Shown here in pieces: positions 5,917 to 31,786 of a stretch of 64,000 nt of DNA (positions are counted from its first letter, which is position 1; the number at the start of each line of letters is the position of its first letter). Both the position numbers and the translations under genes were made by a program. Below the pieces are notes generated by a model that was not told the DNA's origin, made no database searches, and saw only the letters and a program-made list of their open reading frames with translations. The DNA comes from an uncultured Dehalococcoidia bacterium (GTDB lineage: Bacteria; Chloroflexota; Dehalococcoidia; DSTF01; JACRBR01). Where the stretch lies: NCBI GenBank assembly GCA_964371095.1, contig CAYJMJ010000008.1:8278-72277 (forward strand). Direction: 5' to 3'.

Positions 5917-6025
5917 GCGGCGTCTCCAGGCTGTGGGCTGTTGCGCATGGCGGGCGGCCCCAGAATAGCACGGTGTTCGCCGGCGAAAACGCGATCGGCG
6001 CGAACCGATGCTACAATCGCGTGCC

Positions 6026-8197
6026 ATGCCGCTGGATCGACCCTCGCCACGGCCGCGTGACGACGGCCACGTCGTCGAGGTGGTGACCACAGCCTACGCG
6101 TGGCGCTGGTCGCCGGGTACCGATGAGTTCGTGCTATCCGATGAGCAGGGCCGGACCATCCTTTCGTCGCAGCTGCAGCCGGCCGTCGAGGCGACGCGAC
6201 GGCACCTGCCCGGCCCCGGCCGCTGCATCGAGCGCGCGATCGACGGCCCGCACCTGCGCATCCGGTACGCCGGCGTCAACGAGATCGATGGGCTGGAGAT
6301 GGTGATTCGGTTCGAGGCAGCGCATTTCGTCGTCGAGGAGACGACCTTCACGCCGTCCGACGACGCCGCCGTCGTGCGCATCGCCTGGCTTGCGGCATGG
6401 GAGGATGGCGTCCTGCGTCCTGCGGGAACGGCCGGTACCTGCCTGATCCCGGGCGGCCGCCAGGATCCCGAGCAGGCGATCTTCCCGACGGCCGGCCTCG
6501 AGGATCATCGCTTCTCCGTCGGCGCGTTCGGGCTCGACGTGGGGACGTACCACCAGCAGTGGGCGCTGCCGCACTATCTCGTCGTGGCGTACAACGCCGG
6601 CGACGCGCCATCGGGCGCGGCGTGCATCGGCCTGGGCGCCGCGCCCGACGGCAACGTGCTCGTGCGCATGCATCGGGGCCGCTTCTCGTACGAGACCAAC
6701 GTACGGGGTGACCTCTGGGGCCACCGGGCCGGTCCCGGCGAGGTGCGGTTCGACGCGCCACTGGTCGTCGCCGTGGCACGCGACTGGTACGACGCCGGCC
6801 TCGCGTACTTCGACGCGCTGCACGACGAGGGCTACGCGCCGCGCCGCCGCGCCGATGACGTGCCCGCCGCCGCCTTCCTGCCGCAGTACGACACGTGGGG
6901 CGACCAGGGGGCGCGCCGCTGCTTCCTCGAGCGCTTCGACGAGGAGCACCTGCGCGAGATCTACCGCAACTTCCGCGCCTCCAGACTTCGGTCGAGGCTC
7001 TTCGTCATCGACGACAAGTGGGAAGGAACGTACGGCTCGCTCGTCCACGACGAAGAGCGTTTCCCGCGGTTCACCGAATTGCTCGACGAGATTCGGACCG
7101 ACGGCCACGAGATCGGGATCTGGACGGCCTTCCCGCGCTGCGAAGACTACGCGGCGCTCGGACTCACCGCCGACGCGGTGCTCCGGGACCCGGACGGCAC
7201 GCCGTACGTGTATCGGCAGCGCAAACGATCGTGGTACATCTTCGACCCGACGAATGCCGAAGCGGCGGCGTACCTGGCGGATCGCGCGCGTCACCTTGTC
7301 GAGACGTACCGGCCCGCCCTCGTCAAGATCGACTTTGGGTACGAGATCCCGCCGCCCGACGTCGCCGCTCCGCACGACATGGCCTGGGCGGGCGAGCGGC
7401 TCTTCCAGCGCTTCCTGGAGGTCGTCGTCGGCGCGATGAAGGAGGCCGCCCCGCGAGTGGCCGTGCTGTACTACTGCCTGACGCCGCTGTTCAGCCGGTA
7501 CATGGACCTGTCCGGCGCCGACGACCTCTGGATGTCGCGCGGCGCGTACGACGCCGGATTCGCGCGCCGGGCGCTGCTTTCATCGTGGTGCGGCGCGTTC
7601 GGCGTGGTGCCGTACGCTTCGAGCGGCTATGACTGGCGCTCGATCCGGGAGATCTGGCTGGACACCCCCGTTATCGGCACGCCCGGCGTCATCGCCCCGC
7701 TCGCGGGCGACGAGTACGGCGAGACGATCACGCCGGCGCTCGCGGCGATCTACAACGGCGTCGCCCGCATCACGAGATCGAATCCCTTCTACCGCGTTCA
7801 GTTCTTCGATGCCGACCTCGTCGATCTGGCTGCCGGGCCGCGCGCACGCACGTGGGCGCGCATCGAAGGTGGCCAGACGGTGGTCCTGACGCTGCGCCCC
7901 GGCCCCGACGGCGTCGCGCGCGCGGCTGGAACCGCCGAATCCGATTGCCCGGCAATGATCGCATCGCTGACGGCAATGGACGTCCGGTCATCGCCGACGA
8001 TCGGCATCGTGCCGTTTGAACGCGGGCGCGTGACCGTGGAGCGCACCGAGGCGGGCATCGCGCACGGCGTGGCCCATCTGCTATCGGGCGCGGCTGTGCC
8101 GTTCGAGGTGCGTCAGTCCGGAGGCCGCCTCTTCGTCGAAGTCGCGTGCGAGGTGGGCGGAGATCCGGTCGAGTTGATCGAGGTGCGTTTCACGTAG
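6026..8197 (+). CDS. Divergent clan GH-D glycoside hydrolase (GH31/GH36-like TIM barrel)
   Basis: 'FVIDDKWEGTYGSLVHDEERFP', 'GIW', 'FDPTN', putative nucleophile in 'VKIDFGYE'; TACAAT 8 nt before ATG. Confidence 0.65.
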   Translation: MPLDRPSPRPRDDGHVVEVVTTAYAWRWSPGTDEFVLSDEQGRTILSSQLQPAVEATRRHLPGPGRCIERAIDGPHLRIRYAGVNEIDGLEMVIRFEAAHFVVEETTFTPSDDAAVVRIAWLAAWEDGVLRPAGTAGTCLIPGGRQDPEQAIFPTAGLEDHRFSVGAFGLDVGTYHQQWALPHYLVVAYNAGDAPSGAACIGLGAAPDGNVLVRMHRGRFSYETNVRGDLWGHRAGPGEVRFDAPLVVAVARDWYDAGLAYFDALHDEGYAPRRRADDVPAAAFLPQYDTWGDQGARRCFLERFDEEHLREIYRNFRASRLRSRLFVIDDKWEGTYGSLVHDEERFPRFTELLDEIRTDGHEIGIWTAFPRCEDYAALGLTADAVLRDPDGTPYVYRQRKRSWYIFDPTNAEAAAYLADRARHLVETYRPALVKIDFGYEIPPPDVAAPHDMAWAGERLFQRFLEVVVGAMKEAAPRVAVLYYCLTPLFSRYMDLSGADDLWMSRGAYDAGFARRALLSSWCGAFGVVPYASSGYDWRSIREIWLDTPVIGTPGVIAPLAGDEYGETITPALAAIYNGVARITRSNPFYRVQFFDADLVDLAAGPRARTWARIEGGQTVVLTLRPGPDGVARAAGTAESDCPAMIASLTAMDVRSSPTIGIVPFERGRVTVERTEAGIAHGVAHLLSGAAVPFEVRQSGGRLFVEVACEVGGDPVELIEVRFT

Positions 8198-16257: not shown

Positions 16258-16325
16258 CCGATCTCCTGCTGCCGGTCCCCTTCGCGCCTTCATCGCCAGG
16301 CGCAGGGTGACGATACTCCGGAGTG

Positions 16326-16757
16326 ATGAAGTCAGCCGTCTTCCTCGCTCTCCTGGCGTTGCCCTTCGCGGCCTGTTTCAGCGCCGAAGCCCGGTCCGTT
16401 CCCGCGCCCGAAGAGATCGATCCGGTCGAGGCGTCGCCGGCGGCCGTGCACGTCAGCGCGACGGACTACCAGTTCAACCTGACGGCTGCGAGCGCGCACG
16501 CCGGCACCATCGACTTCGTGGTCCACAACGACTCGCTGAACGAGCACGAGTTCATGATCGTGCCGATCGAGGGCGGTCGGTACGGCACTCCCATAGGCGA
16601 GATCGAGCCGTTCGGGGGCGGTGAGACATTGGCGCTCCGCGCGCAGCTCCCGCCCGGCAATTATCGGTTCGTCTGCTTGATCATCTCCGTCATCGATGAC
16701 AAACCACGGTCCCACATGTCGCGCGGCATGAACGTCGCGTTTACGGTGACCTCGTGA
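16326..16757 (+). CDS. Cupredoxin (blue-copper) lipoprotein
   Basis: Signal peptide ending in lipobox-like 'FAAC'; ligands His (NEHEF) and C-x12-H-x4-M (CLIISVIDDKPRSHMSRGM). Confidence 0.75.
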   Translation: MKSAVFLALLALPFAACFSAEARSVPAPEEIDPVEASPAAVHVSATDYQFNLTAASAHAGTIDFVVHNDSLNEHEFMIVPIEGGRYGTPIGEIEPFGGGETLALRAQLPPGNYRFVCLIISVIDDKPRSHMSRGMNVAFTVTS

Positions 16758-19379: not shown

Positions 19380-20054
19380 GTGGACGACGACGAATCCCTG
19401 GAGACACCCGGCCAGGACGCGACGCCAGCCTGGGTGGCCGCGCTTCGCAGCGACGACGGGCTGTTCGTGGCCGACGAGCATCAGCGCATCGTCGCCTGGT
19501 CGCCTTCGGCCGAGGCGGCGCTCGGCTACCGCGCTGAAGAGGTCATCGGGCGGCCCTGCTTCGAGGTAGTGGCCGGCAAGGACATCCGCAGCCACCCCGT
19601 GTGCCGGCCGCACTGCACCGCCGTCACCAACGCGCTGCGCGGCCGCGGCACCGCGCCGTACGACCTCGCCTCCCTCATCAACAAGGAAGGCGAGCGGATC
19701 TGGGTGAACAACACCATCATCGTGGGCCGGGACGACCGAAACCGGCCGCTCATCGTTCACGCGTTCAGGCCGGTGAAGGAGCCGCCGCGGCACACGCCCG
19801 CGACGCGCTTGCCGCCGCGGCCGCGCGCTTCCCGCCGAGCGGACACGCAGCCTGGCGGCCTGAAGCCGCTCAGCCGGCGCGAACTCGAGGCGCTCCGCAT
19901 GCTCGCCGCGGGCCTGAGCACGGCCGAAATCGCCGCGGCAATGACGATAAGCCCCCTTACGGCGAGGAACCACATCAACACGGTGATGCGCAAGCTGGGC
20001 GCCCGCAACCGCGTCGAGTGCTTGCTGGTGGCCGCCGAACGCCGACTAGTCTGA
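19380..20054 (+). CDS. PAS domain + LuxR-type HTH regulator
   Basis: GTG 19380 with GAGG SD; PAS 'IVAWSPSAEAALGYRAEEVIGRPC'; HTH 'LSRRELEALRMLAAGLSTAEIAAAMTISPLTARNHINTVMRKLG'. Confidence 0.9.
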   Translation: MDDDESLETPGQDATPAWVAALRSDDGLFVADEHQRIVAWSPSAEAALGYRAEEVIGRPCFEVVAGKDIRSHPVCRPHCTAVTNALRGRGTAPYDLASLINKEGERIWVNNTIIVGRDDRNRPLIVHAFRPVKEPPRHTPATRLPPRPRASRRADTQPGGLKPLSRRELEALRMLAAGLSTAEIAAAMTISPLTARNHINTVMRKLGARNRVECLLVAAERRLV

Positions 20055-20186: not shown

Positions 20187-21245
20187 ATGAAGCGGCAACT
20201 GGTCCCCGCACTCTTGCTTTGGCTCGCGCTCACCGCCGTGGGCGAGGTCTTGGCCGCCACAGTAGACCTGTACATCGTCCCGAAATCGAACAAGGGCGAG
20301 GAGATCGACTTCGCCTTCCGTTTCCTCGTCTACATGGCGGTACCCGTCTTCACGATGGTCGTGGCCGTGCTCGTCTCGTCGGTCGCCCTACACTCCTCCG
20401 TTGACTTCCCGGAGGAGGACGGTCCGCCCATGCACGGGCGAGGCGCGGCGCCACTGGTCTGGGTGGGCCTCACCTCGTGCCTTGCGGCTGTTGTGATGGT
20501 CTACCCCGGCCTCATCGGGATCCCCCGCGTCGTGCGCCAGACGAGCAACCCTGACGTGCTCGTCAAGGTCGAGGGCGTCCAGTGGACCTGGCTCGTCAGC
20601 TACCCGAACGAAAACATCGACGGCGCGAGAGAGGTCGTTCTCCCCGTCGATTCCACGGTCCGATTCGACATCACCAGTCGTGACGTGCTTCATTCGTTCT
20701 GGGTCCCGTCGTTCTTGCTCAAGATCGACGCGGTGCCAGGCCTGACGACGAGGCTCTCGCTCAAGCCCACGAAGATCGGCTCGTACGACGCGGATCCAAA
20801 CCTGCGCGTGCAGTGCGCGCAGCTCTGCGGGTTGAGCCACTCGCGCATGCAGATGCCGGTTCGCGTCGTCAGCCGAGCCGACTACGATGCCTGGGTGAAG
20901 GAGCAAACCGGTGCTCCCACGGCTGACGTCACGCCCACCGGTCCCGTGACCGAACTGACGATCATCGCGAAGAACATCAAGTGGAACACGGACACGCTGA
21001 CGGCGCCCTCGGGCAGCACGGTGAAGCTCAACATCGACAACCAGGACAATGCGATCCCGCACAACTTCTCGCTCTACGCGAGCGAGCAGGCCGCGTTGAG
21101 CGGCGAGAAGCCGTTGACCACGACCAAGATCCAGTCCGGCCCGCTGCAAGAATCGGTGGTGTTCAACGCACCGGCGGCCGGCACGTATTTCTTCCGGTGT
21201 GACGTGCACCCAACGGCGATGACCGGCACGTTTGTCGTCCAATGA
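20187..21245 (+). CDS. coxB: Heme-copper oxidase subunit II with CuA site and fused C-terminal type-1 cupredoxin domain
   Basis: Two TM helices; 'DVLHSFWVP' and 'CAQLCGLSHSRM' (CuA); extra domain with 'PHNF' and 'YFFRCDVHPTAMTG'. Confidence 0.92.
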   Translation: MKRQLVPALLLWLALTAVGEVLAATVDLYIVPKSNKGEEIDFAFRFLVYMAVPVFTMVVAVLVSSVALHSSVDFPEEDGPPMHGRGAAPLVWVGLTSCLAAVVMVYPGLIGIPRVVRQTSNPDVLVKVEGVQWTWLVSYPNENIDGAREVVLPVDSTVRFDITSRDVLHSFWVPSFLLKIDAVPGLTTRLSLKPTKIGSYDADPNLRVQCAQLCGLSHSRMQMPVRVVSRADYDAWVKEQTGAPTADVTPTGPVTELTIIAKNIKWNTDTLTAPSGSTVKLNIDNQDNAIPHNFSLYASEQAALSGEKPLTTTKIQSGPLQESVVFNAPAAGTYFFRCDVHPTAMTGTFVVQ

Positions 21246-21273
21246 AACTCGCGATGAACGCAGAGGTAATCGT

Positions 21274-23184
21274 ATGACGAGCTCGCCAGACGCGATGGTG
21301 ATGCAGCCTCCGAGTCCCATATCCGCCCTGGTGCCGATCCTGCGCGGCCTCGTGTGGGGCCTCATCGGGTTCGGAATCGGCGCCGGCCTCACTGCCCTGG
21401 CACGGGAAGCGATGGGCGACAGCCCGTGGGCGATCGAGACGAACCTGACGTTCGGCTACATGCTGGGGCTTCCCGGCTGGCTCTTCGGCGTCGGCGTCTG
21501 GGAACGGTGGGGACGCGAATGGTTTGGATGGTCGGTCAAGTCCGAGGAGCCGACGGGGCTGCGCCGATTCCTGGCATTCTCCTTCGACCACAAGGTCATC
21601 GGTATCCAGTACCTGACGACGTTTCTCCTCCTGTTCCTCGTAGCCGGTCTCTTCGCCATGGCAATCCGATACCAGCTGCTGAAGCCTGAAGGTGCGGCGT
21701 TCAGCGACGGCGTGTACAACCGCATCATGAGCATGCACGGCATCATCATGATCGCGGTCGCCGTCGCGTCGGTGATCGGCGGCTTCGGCAACTACTTCAT
21801 CCCGATCATGATCGGCGCGAAGGACGTTGCCTTCCCGCGACTCAACGCACTGACATTCTGGCTCGTGCCGCCCGTCGCCATCCTCCTGCTCGCGTCGCAA
21901 GCCGCAGGCGGCTGGGACGCCGGGTGGACGTCGTATCCGCCACTCAGCCTCCACAACGCCTCGGGCCAGGTGTTCTTCTGCCTGGCGATCATCACGTTCG
22001 GTCTCTCATCGATCCTCGGCGGATTGAACTTCCTGGTGACGATTATTCACCTCCGCGCGCCGGGCATGAGCTGGGGCCGCCTGCCGATCTTCGTCTGGGC
22101 CATGTTCGCCACCTCGATCCTGTCCCTGACGTTCACGCAGTTCTTCGCCGCAGCGATGATGATGGTCCTGATGGAGCGGATCGCCGGATTCGGCTTCTTC
22201 AATGCATCGACGGGCGGCGCGCCGTTGCTGTACCAGCACGTGTTCTGGTTCTATTCCCACCCGGCCGTCTACATCTTCGTGCTGCCGGGCCTCGGCATCA
22301 CGCTCGAGGTGCTCGCCCACTTCTCGCGCAAACCGCTGTTCGCGTACAAATGGGCGGTTGGGGGTCTCCTCGGCATCGTCTCGCTCAGCGGATTGGTGTG
22401 GGCGCACCACATGTTCGCCAGCGGCATGGACGCGAAGCTGCTGTCGCCCTTCCTTGTGTCGACGGAGATCATCTCCATCCCGACCGGCCTCATCTTCCTG
22501 TCGGCGCTGGGCACGATCTGGATGGGCCGCCTCTGGCTGCGCGCACCCATGCTGTTCGCATTGGCTGTGATCTTCAATTTTCTGATCGGCGGCATCACCG
22601 GCATCTTCCTTGCTGATGTTCCGACCGACATCAACGTGCAGGACACGTACTTCGTCGTCGCTCACTTCCATTACACCATCATCGGCGGCGAGATCTTCGC
22701 CCTGTTCGCCGGCGTCTATTACTGGTTCCCGAAGATGTCCGGCCGCATGTACAACGAGAAGCTCGCCCAGCTCCATTTCTGGGTCATGTTCCTCGGATTC
22801 AACTTTGCCTTCATCCCGATGTTCTGGACGGGCCTGCACGGCATGAACCGGCGGATCGCGACGTACCAGCCCGACCTCCAGGGCGTCAATATCTTCATCA
22901 GCATCGCCGCCTTCTCGCTGGGTGCGAGTTTCATCCCGTTCGTGGCGAACATGGTGTACTCGGTAGTCCGCGGGCCGAAGGCGGTCCCCGATCCGTGGCA
23001 CGCACGCTCGCTGGAATGGCAGGTGTCGTCGCCTCCGCCCCTCGAGAACTTCCACGCCATCCCGCTGATCAGCGGCAATCCATATGACTACGGCGTGCGC
23101 GGTGCACCGGCCTACGCGATCGTGCCGATCGCGGGCGGAAGCGGTGAGATCGAGCCGCCAATCGGAGAGGGAACACCGCAATGA
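21274..23184 (+). CDS. coxA: Heme-copper oxygen reductase subunit I, A2-type, with non-canonical K channel
   Basis: 'MHG', 'DVAFPRLN', 'WFYSHPAVY', 'WAHHMF', 'AHFHY', 'GMNRR'; SD GAGG before ATG 21274. Confidence 0.95.
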   Translation: MTSSPDAMVMQPPSPISALVPILRGLVWGLIGFGIGAGLTALAREAMGDSPWAIETNLTFGYMLGLPGWLFGVGVWERWGREWFGWSVKSEEPTGLRRFLAFSFDHKVIGIQYLTTFLLLFLVAGLFAMAIRYQLLKPEGAAFSDGVYNRIMSMHGIIMIAVAVASVIGGFGNYFIPIMIGAKDVAFPRLNALTFWLVPPVAILLLASQAAGGWDAGWTSYPPLSLHNASGQVFFCLAIITFGLSSILGGLNFLVTIIHLRAPGMSWGRLPIFVWAMFATSILSLTFTQFFAAAMMMVLMERIAGFGFFNASTGGAPLLYQHVFWFYSHPAVYIFVLPGLGITLEVLAHFSRKPLFAYKWAVGGLLGIVSLSGLVWAHHMFASGMDAKLLSPFLVSTEIISIPTGLIFLSALGTIWMGRLWLRAPMLFALAVIFNFLIGGITGIFLADVPTDINVQDTYFVVAHFHYTIIGGEIFALFAGVYYWFPKMSGRMYNEKLAQLHFWVMFLGFNFAFIPMFWTGLHGMNRRIATYQPDLQGVNIFISIAAFSLGASFIPFVANMVYSVVRGPKAVPDPWHARSLEWQVSSPPPLENFHAIPLISGNPYDYGVRGAPAYAIVPIAGGSGEIEPPIGEGTPQ

Positions 23185-23399
23185 GCAAGCCGCATGGCGA
23201 GAAGAGCGCATCCCGTATCGGCTGGTGGATCTTCATCGGCCTCGCGATCGTCACGCTGATCGAGTACATCGTCGCGGTTGCACTCTCGATCAACCTGTTC
23301 TTCCTCGCCCAGATCGCCGTGCTCAAGGCCGGGCTCATCGCCGTGTACTTCATGCACATCGGTCGCGCGTTCGAGCGCACCGGGGAGGACGAGGACTAG
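23181..23399 (+). CDS. Cytochrome oxidase small subunit IV-like, 2 TM
   Basis: 72 aa; 'IAVLKAGLIAVYFMHI' matches the prokaryotic subunit IV pattern; ATGA overlap with coxA. Confidence 0.8.
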   Translation: MSKPHGEKSASRIGWWIFIGLAIVTLIEYIVAVALSINLFFLAQIAVLKAGLIAVYFMHIGRAFERTGEDED

Positions 23400-23975
23400 A
23401 TGGCCGTCGCGACGCTGCACCAGGAACACGCCGTCCACCACGAGGAGCCGCAGCGCCCCGCGATGAACCAGCTCGGCCTCTGGCTCTTCTTCCTGTCCGA
23501 GTCATTCCTGTTTGGCGCTCTGCTGTCGGCGCGATTCTATCTCGCGGGCACCGACCGGCCGCACGTCAACCAGCTGCTTGGACTCGCTATCACGGCGATC
23601 CTGCTGGTCAGCAGCCTTACCGCCTACAGGTCTGAATCGTCGATCGCCCGGGGCGATCGGAAGGCATTCCTTCGTTACCTGCTGGCGACAATTGCGCTCG
23701 GCATCATCTTCGCAGTCGGCGTGGGATACGAGTGGTCGACTGCCGAGTTCCACCGATCGGAGCCGTACGGCGCGGCCTTCTTTTCCATGACCGGGCTGCA
23801 CGCGTCACACGTGGTCAGCGGCGTGGTGATGCTGGGGATGGTCTACTACCTCGGCGCACGAGGCCACTTCTCGGCGGATAGTCACTGGGGCGTCGAGGCC
23901 GTCATCAAGTACTGGCACTTCGTCGACGTCGTCTGGGTGTTCTTCTACCCTGCGCTCTACCTGATCAAGCTGTAG
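23400..23975 (+). CDS. coxC: Heme-copper oxidase subunit III
   Basis: 'GLWLFFLSESFLFGAL', 'FFSMTGLHASHV', 'YWHFVDVVW'. Confidence 0.92.
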   Translation: MAVATLHQEHAVHHEEPQRPAMNQLGLWLFFLSESFLFGALLSARFYLAGTDRPHVNQLLGLAITAILLVSSLTAYRSESSIARGDRKAFLRYLLATIALGIIFAVGVGYEWSTAEFHRSEPYGAAFFSMTGLHASHVVSGVVMLGMVYYLGARGHFSADSHWGVEAVIKYWHFVDVVWVFFYPALYLIKL

Positions 23976-28567: not shown

Positions 28568-29569
28568 GTGAAGATCAAGCTCAACGTCAAGCGGACTGAC
28601 TCTGAATCCGGCAAGACAGGCTACAGCGACTACGAAATCGAGGCGCCTGAGAGCACGACGCTGCTCGACGCCCTGATCCAGGTGCGCGAGTACGAGGACG
28701 GCTCGCTCGCGCTCCGCTGCTCGTGCCGAAGCGCGATCTGCGGCTCTTGCGCCATGCGCGTCGACGGCCGCGCGCGCCTCGCCTGCCGCGCCAAGGTGAT
28801 CGCCATCACCGGCGGCGACGAGAACCACGTGATGAAGGTCGAGCCGATGGGCAACATGCCGGTGATCAAGGACCTGGTCAGCGACATGGAGACGTTCTGG
28901 TCGAAGATGCGCTCGGTCGACCCGTACCTGCGGCCCGTGGGCCAGGAGCCGACGGACGAGTACCGCGTCCCGAACGAGACGATGATCGACCTGACGCACA
29001 CCATGAACTGCATCATGTGTGGCGCCTGCGTCAGCGACTGCACGGTACTCGAGGTCGACAAGAGCTTTACGGCGCCGGCAGCGCTCGCCAAGGCGTACCG
29101 GGTCGCCGCCGACCCTCGCGACGGCCACACGCACGAGCGCCTGACGAAACTCAGCGAGGCGGGCGGCATCTGGGACTGCACGCGCTGCAACATGTGCGTC
29201 GAGGTCTGCCCCAAGGGCGTCGCCCCGATGAACCGCATCCTCCAACTACGCGAAATGGCGATCGAGGAGGGCCTGACGAACAACACCGGCGCCCGCCACA
29301 CCGCCATCTTCACGAAGTCGATTACCGACGGTGGCCGCCTCAACGAGATCTGGATGGTTCCCGGCTCGGTCGGCATGTTCAACCTGCCCCGCATCCTCAC
29401 GGAGATGCCGGGCGCGCTCAAGATGGCGCGCGCCGGCAAGCTGCCGTTCAACCAGCTCATTCCGCCGGGCATGCCCGGATCGCACAAGATGCACGGGATG
29501 GAGCGGGTGCGCAACATCATTCGCAAGTCCAGCTCGTTGAAGGCGCCCAAACCGGAGGTAACGAAATAA
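28568..29569 (+). CDS. sdhB: Succinate dehydrogenase Fe-S subunit, type-E signature
   Basis: 'CRSAICGSC' [2Fe-2S]; 'CIMCGACVSDC'; third motif 'CTRCNMCVEVCP' has four Cys. Confidence 0.95.
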   Translation: MKIKLNVKRTDSESGKTGYSDYEIEAPESTTLLDALIQVREYEDGSLALRCSCRSAICGSCAMRVDGRARLACRAKVIAITGGDENHVMKVEPMGNMPVIKDLVSDMETFWSKMRSVDPYLRPVGQEPTDEYRVPNETMIDLTHTMNCIMCGACVSDCTVLEVDKSFTAPAALAKAYRVAADPRDGHTHERLTKLSEAGGIWDCTRCNMCVEVCPKGVAPMNRILQLREMAIEEGLTNNTGARHTAIFTKSITDGGRLNEIWMVPGSVGMFNLPRILTEMPGALKMARAGKLPFNQLIPPGMPGSHKMHGMERVRNIIRKSSSLKAPKPEVTK

Positions 29570-30465
29570 TGGCACTCAAGTACGCGTTCTGGCCCGGCTG
29601 TGTCGCGAAGGGCGCCGCCCCCGAACTGTACGTATCGATGAACCGCGTCGCGAAGGAGCTCGGCATCGAGCTCGTGGAGCTGGACCAGGCGGCCTGCACC
29701 GGCGCCGGCGTCATCCAGGAACAGAACCCGGAAATGGCCGATGCGCTGAACGCGCGCACCTTCGCCATGGCGCAGCGGCTCGGGCTGCCGCTGATGAACA
29801 TCTGCTCCACCTGCCAGGGCATCGAGAGCATCGTGCAGGACAAGCTGGCGAAGGACCCCGGCTACCTCGACAAGGTCAACGCCATCCTCGCCGATGAGGG
29901 GCTGACCTACACCCCGGGACTCGCGGTCAAGAACTTCCTCTGGGTGCTGGTGGAAGACCTCGGGCTCGATAAGCTCAAGGCCGCCATCAAGCGGCCGCTC
30001 AGCGGCCTGCGCGTCGGGCCGTTCTACGGATGCTACATCCTTCGCCCCAGCTCGATTCTGGGCAAGGAGGAGCACCCGGGCCGCGACCACTACCTGGAGG
30101 ACGTCATCGCCGCGCTCGGCGCGACCGTCGTCGACTACGAGGGCGCCAAGAAGTGCTGCGGCTTCCCGATCCTGACGATCAACCGGGAGAATTCGCTCAC
30201 GCAGACGGGCAACCACATCCACGAGGCGCAGGATCTCGGCGCAGACGCGCTCGTGTCCCCGTGCCCGCTCTGCCACTTGAACCTCGACGCGCAGCAGCCG
30301 GCGGCGAAGGCCGTGACGAAGCACGACATCGACCTGCCCATCCTGCACCTGCCGCAACTGGTCGGACTTGCGCTGGGCATCGATCCGAAGGAGATGAGGC
30401 TCGACCACCACGTCGTCTCGACGCAGAAGCTGCTCGACAAGATGACAGCTCCAGCCCGCGCGTAG
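29569..30465 (+). CDS. HdrB-like CCG-domain subunit; anchor of type-E succinate:quinone oxidoreductase
   Basis: 'WPGC', 'ACTGAG', 'CSTC', 'FYGC', 'KCCG', 'CPLCHLNLD'; TAATG overlap with sdhB. Confidence 0.9.
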   Translation: MALKYAFWPGCVAKGAAPELYVSMNRVAKELGIELVELDQAACTGAGVIQEQNPEMADALNARTFAMAQRLGLPLMNICSTCQGIESIVQDKLAKDPGYLDKVNAILADEGLTYTPGLAVKNFLWVLVEDLGLDKLKAAIKRPLSGLRVGPFYGCYILRPSSILGKEEHPGRDHYLEDVIAALGATVVDYEGAKKCCGFPILTINRENSLTQTGNHIHEAQDLGADALVSPCPLCHLNLDAQQPAAKAVTKHDIDLPILHLPQLVGLALGIDPKEMRLDHHVVSTQKLLDKMTAPARA

Positions 30466-30490
30466 ACGTACGCACACATTCAGAGAGAAT

Positions 30491-30516
30491 GGGGGCGCAG
30501 CGATCGCTGCGCCCCC
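30491..30516. terminator. Bidirectional terminator hairpin
   Basis: Perfect 26-bp palindrome GGGGGCGCAGCGATCGCTGCGCCCCC between convergent genes, followed by TTCACGTTTCTCTT on the + strand. Confidence 0.8.
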
Positions 30517-30535
30517 TTCACGTTTCTCTTCCGCG

Positions 30536-31786
30536 TCACGCGCGCCGCCGCCGCAACGCGAGACCGGCCGCCATGGCGACGATGCCCGATGCCGCGAGCC
30601 AACCGACGGTAGCACCACCGCTACGGCCAGCCGGTCCGCCGCCGGCATTTGGCGCGACGATACGGGCTGCGACAGCGGGGACGGCGCATCCCGGCCGCGG
30701 CCCGAAACGCTGCTCGGCCGGTGGTGATGTGCCGAATTGCGTGACCGAAGCAACGCGGACGGTGATCGTGACCTCCGGCCAGTTGACGCCGAGCCTGCCC
30801 GGACAAGCTGGCAACAGATCGCGGGGCACATCGAACCCGTTCGCGCCGGTGATGTGCAGCGCTCGCATCCGGGGAGGCTCGCCCGGAATCTCGACGGTCA
30901 ACACAACGTCGAATGCCTCAGCGCCTGCGGGCCTGTCCCAGTAGACGTAGAATCCGCCGCCATCCGTTATCTCGTTCATACGGATTCCGCTCGGCACGGC
31001 GATATCGGTGTCGGACGGGGGTGGAATCGTCGGTTCGGCAAGCGGCGGGCGGTCCGTCGGCGCGACGGAGGCGAACGCCGCGACGTGTTGGACGTGGCGC
31101 TTGCCCTGGGCGTCAGGCCGGCTGGTGAACGTGTACTGGAACGCGACTTTCGGCTGCGGCCGTGGATCCGGCGACGTGAGCAGCGGCGTCCCGGCGGGGG
31201 TGATGCCAAACAGTGTGTTCGCGCTCTTCTGCGGAGTACACGACGTGAACTGCTTCGGCGGATGCGGTGGATCGCCCACGAACACCGTCCCGACGATCGC
31301 CTTCGAGATCGGATCGATATCGAACAGGTAGTTGATCAGGATCGGGATGGTAGGCGATGGCGATACGTCGGCGACGAGTCGCAGCCGGTGTGGCCCCGGC
31401 GCGAGGGCGCGCAGGTACGCGGGATAGGACTCGGATGAGATGTCGGTCGTCGCCTCACGGATAGGCACCGTGAAAGCGACGTGGCTGTTGCACTCCGGCA
31501 GCGTGATCGCGTTCGTCGTGGCTTCCGCATCGAGCCTGCCGACGACGGTGCCGTCCGGTATATCGCCGTCAGACGCGATGCCGCTGTCCGGCGGCGACAC
31601 GATGCGAACCTGATCGAAGCCCGCGCCGGTCGGTGCTTCGAAGATCACCTGGAGATCCGGATGTCCCCCCGGCGTCGCAGACGAAAGCGACACGCTGACC
31701 AGCGGCGAGGGGAATTCGTGAGCCTCAGCGGCGCGGACGACAACCAGCATCACGCAGATCACGACCAGGCCAAACAGACGTATCAT
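30536..31786 (-). CDS. Secreted hypothetical surface protein with C-terminal sorting-like signal
   Basis: N-terminal signal ('MIRLFGLVVICVMLVVVRAAEA'); Pro-rich linkers; C-terminal 'APNAG'...hydrophobic stretch...'RRRRA'. Confidence 0.75.
   Translation of the reverse strand: MIRLFGLVVICVMLVVVRAAEAHEFPSPLVSVSLSSATPGGHPDLQVIFEAPTGAGFDQVRIVSPPDSGIASDGDIPDGTVVGRLDAEATTNAITLPECNSHVAFTVPIREATTDISSESYPAYLRALAPGPHRLRLVADVSPSPTIPILINYLFDIDPISKAIVGTVFVGDPPHPPKQFTSCTPQKSANTLFGITPAGTPLLTSPDPRPQPKVAFQYTFTSRPDAQGKRHVQHVAAFASVAPTDRPPLAEPTIPPPSDTDIAVPSGIRMNEITDGGGFYVYWDRPAGAEAFDVVLTVEIPGEPPRMRALHITGANGFDVPRDLLPACPGRLGVNWPEVTITVRVASVTQFGTSPPAEQRFGPRPGCAVPAVAARIVAPNAGGGPAGRSGGATVGWLAASGIVAMAAGLALRRRRA

Follow-up and report, generated by a model that had tools for sequence, protein, structure and literature searches.

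How can an A-type heme-copper oxygen reductase turn over when the lysine of its K proton channel is missing? We sought to answer this question for a 64-kb stretch of DNA from an uncultured Dehalococcoidia bacterium (contig CAYJMJ010000008.1; hereafter the window), in which an earlier note had described an A2-type oxygen reductase without the K-channel in both subunits and had put it forward as a new system. K362 mutants (residues marked Rs follow Rhodobacter sphaeroides numbering) are almost dead in model enzymes, so turnover of an A-type oxidase without this lysine is a real open question of bioenergetics; it is also one that predates this window, having been catalogued since 2020. In all probability, the window encodes an intact and functional coxII-coxI-coxIV-coxIII operon on the + strand, specifying an A-family, A2-type (YS) aa3-like O2 reductase of a Chloroflexota clade with two extra transmembrane (TM) helices and no K-channel Lys (hereafter the K-less clade). 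The assignment was based on the open reading frame (ORF) list, Pfam and translation, with matching gene calls on independent contigs. The concerted loss that the earlier note had described proved to be real, while its claim of a new system did not stand: the clade is already catalogued, and the same inference was published in 2020/2021 by Degli Esposti et al. (PMC8239418). We put at about even the chance that our best explanation as a whole, which combines this identity with a re-lined proton route, is correct.

The catalytic subunit, coxI (21274–23184, + strand), matched Pfam COX1 at 2.9e-138 and had its best PDB match in Thermus thermophilus caa3 (2yev_A, 4.8e-131). Its residues are numbered here from the ORF start at TTG 21232; gene callers start at ATG 21274. 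Reading the codons directly, we found Ile (I421, ATC, 22492-94) at Rs K362, Leu (L358, CTC, 22303-05) at Rs S299 and Glu (E412, GAG, 22465-67) at Rs M353. In subunit II, the K-channel entrance Glu (Rs E101; Paracoccus denitrificans (Pd) E78) is replaced by Pro (CCA, 20451–20453, + strand), which lies opposite the Glu of 2yev_B. All four codons were as the earlier note had read them. Helix VIII of coxI reads STEIISIPTGLIFLSAL, and the subunit II segment reads HGRGAAPLVW.

The register, which had been set by hand, held up. In phmmer alignments with 2yev_A and with mycobacterial aa3, COX1 was gap-free over helices VI–X, and the query Ile stood opposite the channel Lys ('alia vptgvk' against 'eiisiptgli'), no Lys being placed in the channel. 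The offset to R. sphaeroides numbering was a constant 59 from Y288 through H421. Subunit II aligned with 2yev_B as HGNDRLEVVW / HGRGAAPLVW, with Pro facing the entrance Glu. A shifted register or a hidden basic residue was rejected after a scan of helices VI–IX and of TM2 of subunit II: no Lys, Arg or His was found within helices VI–IX except at helix ends, and the TM2 segment HGRGAAPLVWVGLTSCLAAVVMVYPGLIG held no Asp or Glu, whatever the register. The change at S299 is by itself a weak marker, since caa3, a solved A2 enzyme, has Ala at this position. By these alignments, the N-side half of the K-channel has, in its canonical form, been lost from both subunits.

Could such a loss be an artefact, due to a wrong register, to a pseudogene or to faulty assembly? 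We found no evidence for this explanation in any of the comparisons described here, and its probability is practically negligible. The alignments to several solved structures were gap-free; the ORFs are intact and tightly coupled, with high GC content at third codon positions (GC3); 22 independent contigs of separate ENA metagenome assemblies carry an identical 636-aa COX1 within the same operon; and the catalytic residues are invariant across 142 homologues. In the nearest 90%-identity clusters (at least 64% identity), Lys was absent from 120/120, Glu stood at M353 in all, and Leu stood at S299 in 119. The K-less clade, which consists of Chloroflexota/Dehalococcoidia metagenome-assembled genomes (MAGs), lacked the Lys in 142/142 members, and 22 Chloroflexota-clade loci were K-less in a set of 80 species-representative genomes. 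The substitutions are therefore not unique to one assembly, and a private mutation or assembly error was rejected on the strength of the 120 clusters, the 22 Chloroflexota loci and the 22 contigs.

The next group out consisted of 57 Thermoleophilia loci with 45–49% identity, and these had K, S299 and W366 in 57/57. The COX2 entrance Glu (HGNTxLE..W) was found in 56/56 of the K-bearing Thermoleophilia loci in which the segment is present, versus 0/22 K-less loci, which mostly have Pro. Across 79 genomes, the loss of the COX2 Glu tracks the loss of the COX1 Lys, and the replacement of three K-channel residues is concerted across both subunits throughout the clade, as the earlier note had proposed from a single sequence. 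The nearest genomes belong to uncultured Chloroflexota labelled Dehalococcoidia, 'Chloroflexia', Tepidiformaceae, Ca. Amarobacillus or Ca. Thermoflexus, with COX1 proteins that are 56–85% identical. As judged from this distribution, non-acidophilic Chloroflexota keep the K-less trait stably and under strong selection, and it is widespread among them. The closest complete genome, OY969567.1 (locus L021), has an 85% identical COX1. Its COX1 match covers about 1.9 kb (about 6001–7939), with a longest ORF of only 371 aa, which may reflect a frameshift or an assembly error in a long-read MAG.

The next question was to which family such an enzyme belongs. The AlphaFold2 (AF2) model of coxI had a predicted template modelling score (pTM) of 0.82, and Foldseek returned TM-scores of 0.86–0.92 to Paracoccus, Rhodobacter and bovine subunit I. 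The hallmarks of a heme-copper O2 reductase are in place: all six His ligands, of which two serve the low-spin heme, one the high-spin heme and three CuB, are retained together with the cross-link Tyr Y347 (Rs Y288), and the equivalents of Rs H284, H333, H334, H419, H421 and Y288 were found in 119–120/120 of the nearest homologues. Five of the six His ligands were invariant in the 120 nearest clusters, and the H333-equivalent was His in 119/120. Helix VI carries FWFYSHPAVY, with the YS of the A2 subtype in place of E286. In its YSHPAVY segment (22252–22272, + strand), invariant in 120/120, the YS motif is combined with the CuB His (Rs H284) and the cross-link Tyr (Rs Y288), and Ala takes the place of E286. 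The D-channel is of the A-family kind: the entrance Asp D198 (Rs D132; 21823–21825, + strand) was conserved in 100% of the 120 nearest clusters, N187 and N205 (Rs N121 and N139) were kept in 120/120, and the Ser pair of helix IV is present as S259-S260. T418 (Rs T359), S424 (Rs S365) and the RR pair are also retained, so that the list of conserved features given in the earlier note was confirmed in full, as was its assignment of the intact operon to an A2-type (YS) heme-copper O2 reductase.

Two extra N-terminal TM helices (residues 31–60 and 68–97; 21322–21522, + strand) precede the canonical 12 in the AF2 model, with a block predicted local distance difference test (pLDDT) score of 91–97 and with Trp and Gly positions conserved clade-wide. 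They are common to the K-bearing Thermoleophilia sisters and are thus not tied to the loss of Lys. The enzyme departs from the canonical A-family of the Pereira/Sousa classification at the K-channel, where Ile, Leu and Pro stand clade-wide at three positions; being A-family by sequence and fold, it is a variant of the family and not a canonical member. Identity with the other families was excluded by active-site and channel features. A B-family enzyme, which would have no D-channel and whose K-analogue would have Thr in place of the Lys and Tyr residues on helix VI, is contradicted by the D-channel and by the Ile/Val at the Lys position, and ba3 chains matched subunit II only, weakly (E about 1e-3), with none among the subunit I matches. 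The KC-channel of the C-family, marked by a cross-link Tyr on helix VII together with His, Ser and Tyr on helices VI-VII, is only partially resembled, because helix VII has Ser386 and not Tyr, and the cross-link Tyr lies on helix VI. Nitric oxide reductases (NOR) have lost the cross-link Tyr, and either their FeB site has a Glu ligand or their active-site motif is altered (PMC11214002). Here the Tyr and the three CuB His are invariant, which sets the enzyme apart from cNOR, qNOR and the newer NOR families.

K-less A2 enzymes of this kind have been catalogued since 2020, and the window does not therefore hold a new system. In their 2020 preprint and 2021 paper, Degli Esposti et al. described A2-type cytochrome oxidases (COX), Chloroflexi MAGs among them, in which substitutions in both COX1 and COX2 have removed a functional K-channel while the D-channel is retained. 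The 2021 study tabulated K-channel variants over roughly 100 COX1 sequences (PMC8239418) and defined a 'Chloroflexi hybrid/KC channel' subclade whose members lack the K-channel and carry one or two additional N-terminal TMs (PMC8239418, Suppl. Tables S1 and S7). Examples are Chloroflexi bacterium CSP1-4 KRT60364 ('A2 2TM hybrid') and CF_167 TMB58219, with the pattern Y/L/V/T/S/E (PMC8239418). Our sequence reproduces this pattern, with Ile for Val, as Y347/L358/I421/T418/S424/E359 at Pd 280/291/354/351/357/292. It further resembles the subclade in its A2 type, its two extra N-terminal TM helices and its origin in a Chloroflexi MAG. No accession was shared with the Degli Esposti tables among the 10 clusters compared by cluster look-up, and the subclade assignment thus rests on pattern, extra helices and taxonomy.

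Some features set our locus apart from these examples. KRT60364 and TMB58219 have E or Q at the COX2 entrance, whereas Pro is found here and in most loci of the clade. A caa3_CtaG gene is associated with the published subclade, but none was found among the approximately 45 ORFs of the window that were scanned with Pfam, a scan confined to the window. In the texts searched there was no mention of a fused COX2 cupredoxin or of a TExxS motif for the Chloroflexi subclade. What our comparison adds for this clade is, by sequence, a contrast between the lower and upper channel, two gained Ser residues and the invariant Glu of the TExxS motif. The earlier note had allowed that K-channel variants may exist in other lineages, and as regards novelty this caveat proved justified.

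Next, we examined where along the channel the clade has changed. The 142 K-less sequences were compared with 57 K-bearing sisters and mapped onto the residues that bound the Rs K-channel in a molecular dynamics (MD) study, namely L227, L238, H284, V287, P315, G324, G327, A356, I363, S365, W366 and G398, with H96, L100 and E101 in subunit II (PMC10341450). In the lower half, K362 was replaced by Ile or Val in 140/142 K-less sequences, against Lys in the sisters, and S299 by Leu in 140/142, against Ser in 57/57. I363 is Phe where the sisters have Ile/Val, P315 is Trp where they have Met/Leu, and W366 is Ala or Gly (141/142) where they have Trp. S365 is Ser in 78% and Ala in 18% of the K-less sequences (Ser in the sisters), and E101 of subunit II is variable (P, A, I, V, G, S, L) against Glu in the sisters.

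The upper half tells a different story. T359 and Y288 are invariant in both groups, T418 being present in 100% of the 142. The helix VIII segment T411-E412-I-I-S415-I-P-T418-G-L-I421-F422-L-S424-A425 (22462–22506, + strand) corresponds to Rs T352, M353 (now E), A356 (now S), T359, K362 (now I), I363 (now F), S365 and W366 (now A). A356 is Ser (S415) in 142/142 K-less sequences versus Ala in the sisters, and M353 is Glu (E412) in 142/142, while the sisters, with A, M, L, C, V or S, never have Glu. On helix VII, S386 (22387–22389, + strand) stands at the K-channel wall position G327, with S in 138/142 (97%) versus G in 57/57 sisters. G327 and A356 are both corners of the K-channel water volume in the MD study, G327 being a listed wall residue (PMC10341450). 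The lower half of the K-channel is on this comparison now hydrophobic, reshaped and poorly constrained, and the upper half is conserved and more polar.

If the K-pathway were dead, all eight protons per O2, chemical and pumped, would pass through the D-channel, and the residues of the upper cavity would be structural only, for example through hydrogen bonds to the heme a3 farnesyl hydroxyl and to the Tyr. The lower half is what such an enzyme might show: throughout the clade, the three canonical K residues have given way to non-protonatable side chains, the lower wall has become bulkier and more hydrophobic (S299L, K362I/V, I363F, P315W), and the D-channel Asp/Asn and the YS motif are 100% conserved. 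The upper half fits it poorly, since T359 is still invariant, and two new invariant Ser residues and a Glu at or next to K-channel wall positions are hard to explain if the region is idle. Moreover, the K362M mutation almost abolishes turnover in model A-type enzymes despite an intact D-channel, and we know of no characterised heme-copper oxidase that runs on the D-channel only. We thus regard this explanation, which the 2020 preprint and the earlier note had also suggested, as unlikely, though it is the most probable of the alternatives weighed here.

Selection on an upper cavity that is still in use would, on the other hand, leave the upper K-channel positions invariant, and together with the gained hydroxyls this makes the sequence evidence lean towards a re-routed path. 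That positions in the lower channel are hydrophobic or under loose constraint also counts in favour of such a path. A re-lined proton route that feeds the binuclear centre without Lys is the reading we favour, with a probability that falls somewhat short of even. Electrons would probably enter via a blue-copper domain fused to subunit II and pass through CuA and heme a to heme a3-CuB. The intact D-channel would presumably carry the pumped protons and the chemical protons of the oxidative phase, while the reductive-phase protons would travel through the re-lined upper cavity to the Tyr and the binuclear centre. There, the E412-S415 pair, with S386 and T418, may act as an internal relay or reservoir instead of Lys. 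The cavity might in turn be fed by a displaced entry on the N side, near E359, H363, R433 and the gap left by the change of W366 to Ala.

Several residues, some of them clade-specific, surround this putative entry. At the N-side end of helix VI (L358, E359 and H363; 22303–22320, + strand), E359 (Rs H300) is an invariant Glu in both the K-less and the K-bearing groups, and H363 occurs in 137/142 K-less sequences versus 0 sisters. R/K433, at the N-side end of helix VIII, is a clade-specific polar gain. On helix IX, the clade-specific polar residue N449 (22576–22578, + strand) is N in 133/142 sequences versus M/T in the sisters; we infer that it lies at about the membrane depth of the lost Lys, and it is possibly part of the entry route. 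Two published observations fit a re-lined route. In B- and C-family enzymes, a Lys-free K-analogue lined by Ser, Thr and Tyr can serve all protons (PMC11214002), and Degli Esposti et al. (2021) classed the matching Chloroflexi sequences as 'hybrid/KC-channel' rather than channel-less (PMC8239418).

To place the helix VIII changes in wider diversity, we used 149 representatives clustered at 50% identity. Relatives of the query are over-represented among them and the association statistics ignore shared ancestry, so the counts are suggestive only. Glu at M353 was found in 19/61 K-less versus 0/88 K-bearing representatives and never occurred alongside Lys. The helix VIII Glu pointed out in the earlier note is thus real and, moreover, invariant in the clade and confined to K-less enzymes. 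All 19 Glu-bearing representatives had Ser/Thr at i+3, forming a TExxS motif. Ser at A356 was found in 28/61 K-less versus 1/88 K-bearing representatives, and Ser at G327 in 46/61 versus 15/88. Across the whole protein, no changes correlated more strongly with Lys loss than the Glu and Ser changes at M353, G327 and A356.

In a rough neighbour-joining (NJ) tree, used as a guide only, the Glu-bearing sequences formed at least two groups. The first comprised the query clade and an adjoining group that includes a Dormibacterota locus and whose helix VI motif keeps E286. The second had Phe at T359, a residue tabulated at this position for oxidases of the crenarchaeal Aeropyrum and of Marsarchaeota (Degli Esposti 2021, PMC8239418). 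From these sequences, the Glu-Ser pair appears to recur in A-family oxidases without the Lys from several bacterial phyla, and probably in archaea too. That TExxS (Rs M353E plus A356S) and the Ser at G327 functionally replace the Lys, as a carboxylate relay atop the old K cavity, is a tentative proposal that we hold to be rather doubtful. The motif and its companion Ser do provide a concrete and testable candidate for the replacement, and if the proposal is true, the relay would be a third proton-input design among heme-copper oxidases. We did not find it described in the literature searched, although the 2020 review by Degli Esposti in Biochimica et Biophysica Acta may mention the helix VIII Glu.

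A number of points weigh against the re-lined route. How the side chains of E412 and N449 are oriented, and where the entry would lie, was guessed from the periodicity and depth of the helices. By the AF2 helix boundaries, E412 sits about two turns to the P side of T418, level with the CuB ligands, and could belong to an exit or loading side and not to the input path. A water wire past an aliphatic residue at 421 and a Leu at S299 is not obviously favourable. The Ser at G327 is shared by 15 of the 88 Lys-bearing enzymes, and the same associations are blind to shared ancestry and come from a representative set skewed to the query's relatives. Finally, no biochemical work on the K-less Chloroflexota clade was found in the literature.

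The position of E412 also invites an explanation in which the enzyme is coupled differently. The reductive-phase protons would then come from the P side, as in cNOR, via the Glu at the level of CuB and an altered P-side loop (D462, T465 and the Mg-site ligands), which would lower the H+/e- ratio or give the enzyme a role in scavenging or with an alternative substrate. The AF2 helix boundaries would put E412 at the depth of the CuB His, the loop between helices IX and X has gained clade-specific acidic and polar residues (D462 in 100% and T465 in 98%), and the Mg/Mn-site ligands vary, the Rs H411 position being S, Q or H and the bridging Glu of COX2 being Gln in the window. Set against these observations, the hallmarks of an O2 reductase are invariant: the cross-link Tyr and all three CuB His are present, and a Glu ligand of the FeB type is absent. 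A pumping A-type enzyme would be expected to retain the D-channel and subunits III and IV, as this one does. The COX2 Glu to Gln change is not clade-wide, occurring only in the query and in locus L002. We consider a supply from the P side improbable, far more so than dependence on the D-channel alone.

Under the re-lined route, the search for a replacement of the Lys is narrowed to a few mutable residues: E412, S415, S386, T418, N449 and H363. An enzyme from the K-less Chloroflexota clade would be a reasonable subject for expression, measurement of H+/e- and cryo-EM.

Comparison with the closest known systems shows which of these features are shared. T. thermophilus caa3 (2YEV), the model A2 enzyme and the solved structure nearest to ours, is the best PDB match for both subunits and likewise has YS for E286, Glu at Rs H300 and a redox carrier fused to subunit II. 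Unlike our enzyme, it has retained both the channel Lys (K328) and the Glu of subunit II, carries a cytochrome c as its fused carrier where ours is a cupredoxin, has subunits I and III fused and is without the extra N-terminal helices. The aa3 oxidase of the Acidithiobacillus ferrooxidans rus operon and the '2TM' oxidases of iron oxidisers share the change of Lys (to Ile, Val, Leu, Met or Phe), the loss of the COX2 entrance Glu, the retained D-channel, the extra N-terminal TMs and a cupredoxin electron partner. They differ from our enzyme in having HPEVY (with E286 present), a separate cupredoxin gene and the order II-I-III-IV. Their hosts are acidophiles, and the window gives no sign of acidophily.

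The A2 '2TM' oxidases of Solirubrobacterales/Thermoleophilia (loci L022-L080, 45–49% identical) resemble the enzyme in the YS motif, the extra N-terminal helices and the overall architecture, but their K, S299, W366 and COX2 Glu are canonical and they are without E412, S415 and S386. The K-analogues of ba3 and cbb3 offer a parallel of another kind, as Lys-free input paths lined by Ser, Thr, Tyr and water, and Ser386 stands at the helix VII position of the cbb3 cross-link Tyr. However, the B and C enzymes have no D-channel, and the cross-link Tyr here lies on helix VI, as in the A and B families.

Subunit II (coxII, 20187–21245, + strand) has a CuA domain in addition to its two TM helices and ends in a fused type-1 cupredoxin; Pfam recognises COX2, Cupredoxin_1 and Copper-bind, and the best PDB match is 2yev_B. 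Its ORF runs from GTG 20154, and gene callers start it at ATG 20187. The CuA pattern H...C-x3-C-x3-H-x2-M is present as LHSFW ... C221 A Q L C225 G L S H229 S R M232. The fused blue-copper domain (20949–21242, + strand; residues 266–363; Pfam PF13473/PF00127) scored above the cutoffs for both Cupredoxin_1 (3.2e-10) and Copper-bind (1.4e-5), and its matches to the PDB were weak ones to auracyanin. At the coxII C-terminus, the type-1 ligand pattern His...Cys-x2-His-x3-Met is found as IPH...FRC-DV-H-PTA-M, a predicted copper site. Among the 80 representative genomes, the fusion was seen only in the nearest relatives, L021 and L001. The domain is a probable electron-entry module.

In this subunit, Gln (coxII Q223, 20820–20822) replaces the Glu of CxELC that links CuA with the Mg/Mn site, and the Mg ligand position Rs H411 is also Gln (coxI Q470, 22639–22641). 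Loss of the bridging Glu was described as unique to proteobacterial iron oxidisers in the 2020 preprint of Degli Esposti et al.; here, the change to Gln is limited to the query and L002, and many Solirubrobacterales sisters have Leu (CNLLC). A link between the loss of Mg-site ligands and that of Lys was rejected, because the Glu to Gln change occurs only in those two and because the Rs H411 position is variable (S, Q, H) and is Ser in K-bearing sisters. A second clade-specific buried Glu, E487 (22690–22692), lies on helix X, seven residues past the heme a ligand His480. It sits on the side of the helix towards heme a, in the area of the bovine 'H-pathway', and is found in 96% of the K-less clade, against Ser in the sisters.

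The genes of the operon are in the order II-I-IV-III. Between coxI and coxIII lies coxIV (23181–23399, + strand), which overlaps the coxI stop, is directly followed by the ATG of coxIII and lies outside the stretch 20401–22500 that the earlier note had covered. It encodes a two-TM subunit IV of 72 aa, known from translation, from a Pfam COX4_pro match above the cutoff (4e-8) and from gene calls on independent contigs. The coxIII gene (23400–23975, + strand) encodes a short five-helix subunit III (Pfam COX3 5.4e-28, profile positions 77–255). Adjoining the operon on its upstream side is a gene for a PAS and LuxR/GerE-type protein of 224 aa (19380–20054, + strand; Pfam PAS_9/PAS and GerE), a possible regulator of the oxidase operon, with synteny that is kept on independent contigs. 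Its PAS domain has a Cys-rich stretch (RPCFEV...HPVCRPHC), and the protein may be a redox or O2 sensor that governs the oxidase.

No other terminal oxidases or heme A genes were found among the window ORFs scanned. Downstream of the operon, ruvA lies on the opposite strand, and the remainder of the window is ordinary high-GC chromosomal housekeeping. Within it, an ORF of 733 aa (28630–30831, - strand) has coding-like GC3 and no Pfam domain at E<=1e-5. An ORF of 144 aa (16323–16757), 3.4 kb upstream of the oxidase, has a sub-threshold cupredoxin-like Pfam match (E 7.6e-4), and its product might be a soluble copper electron carrier.

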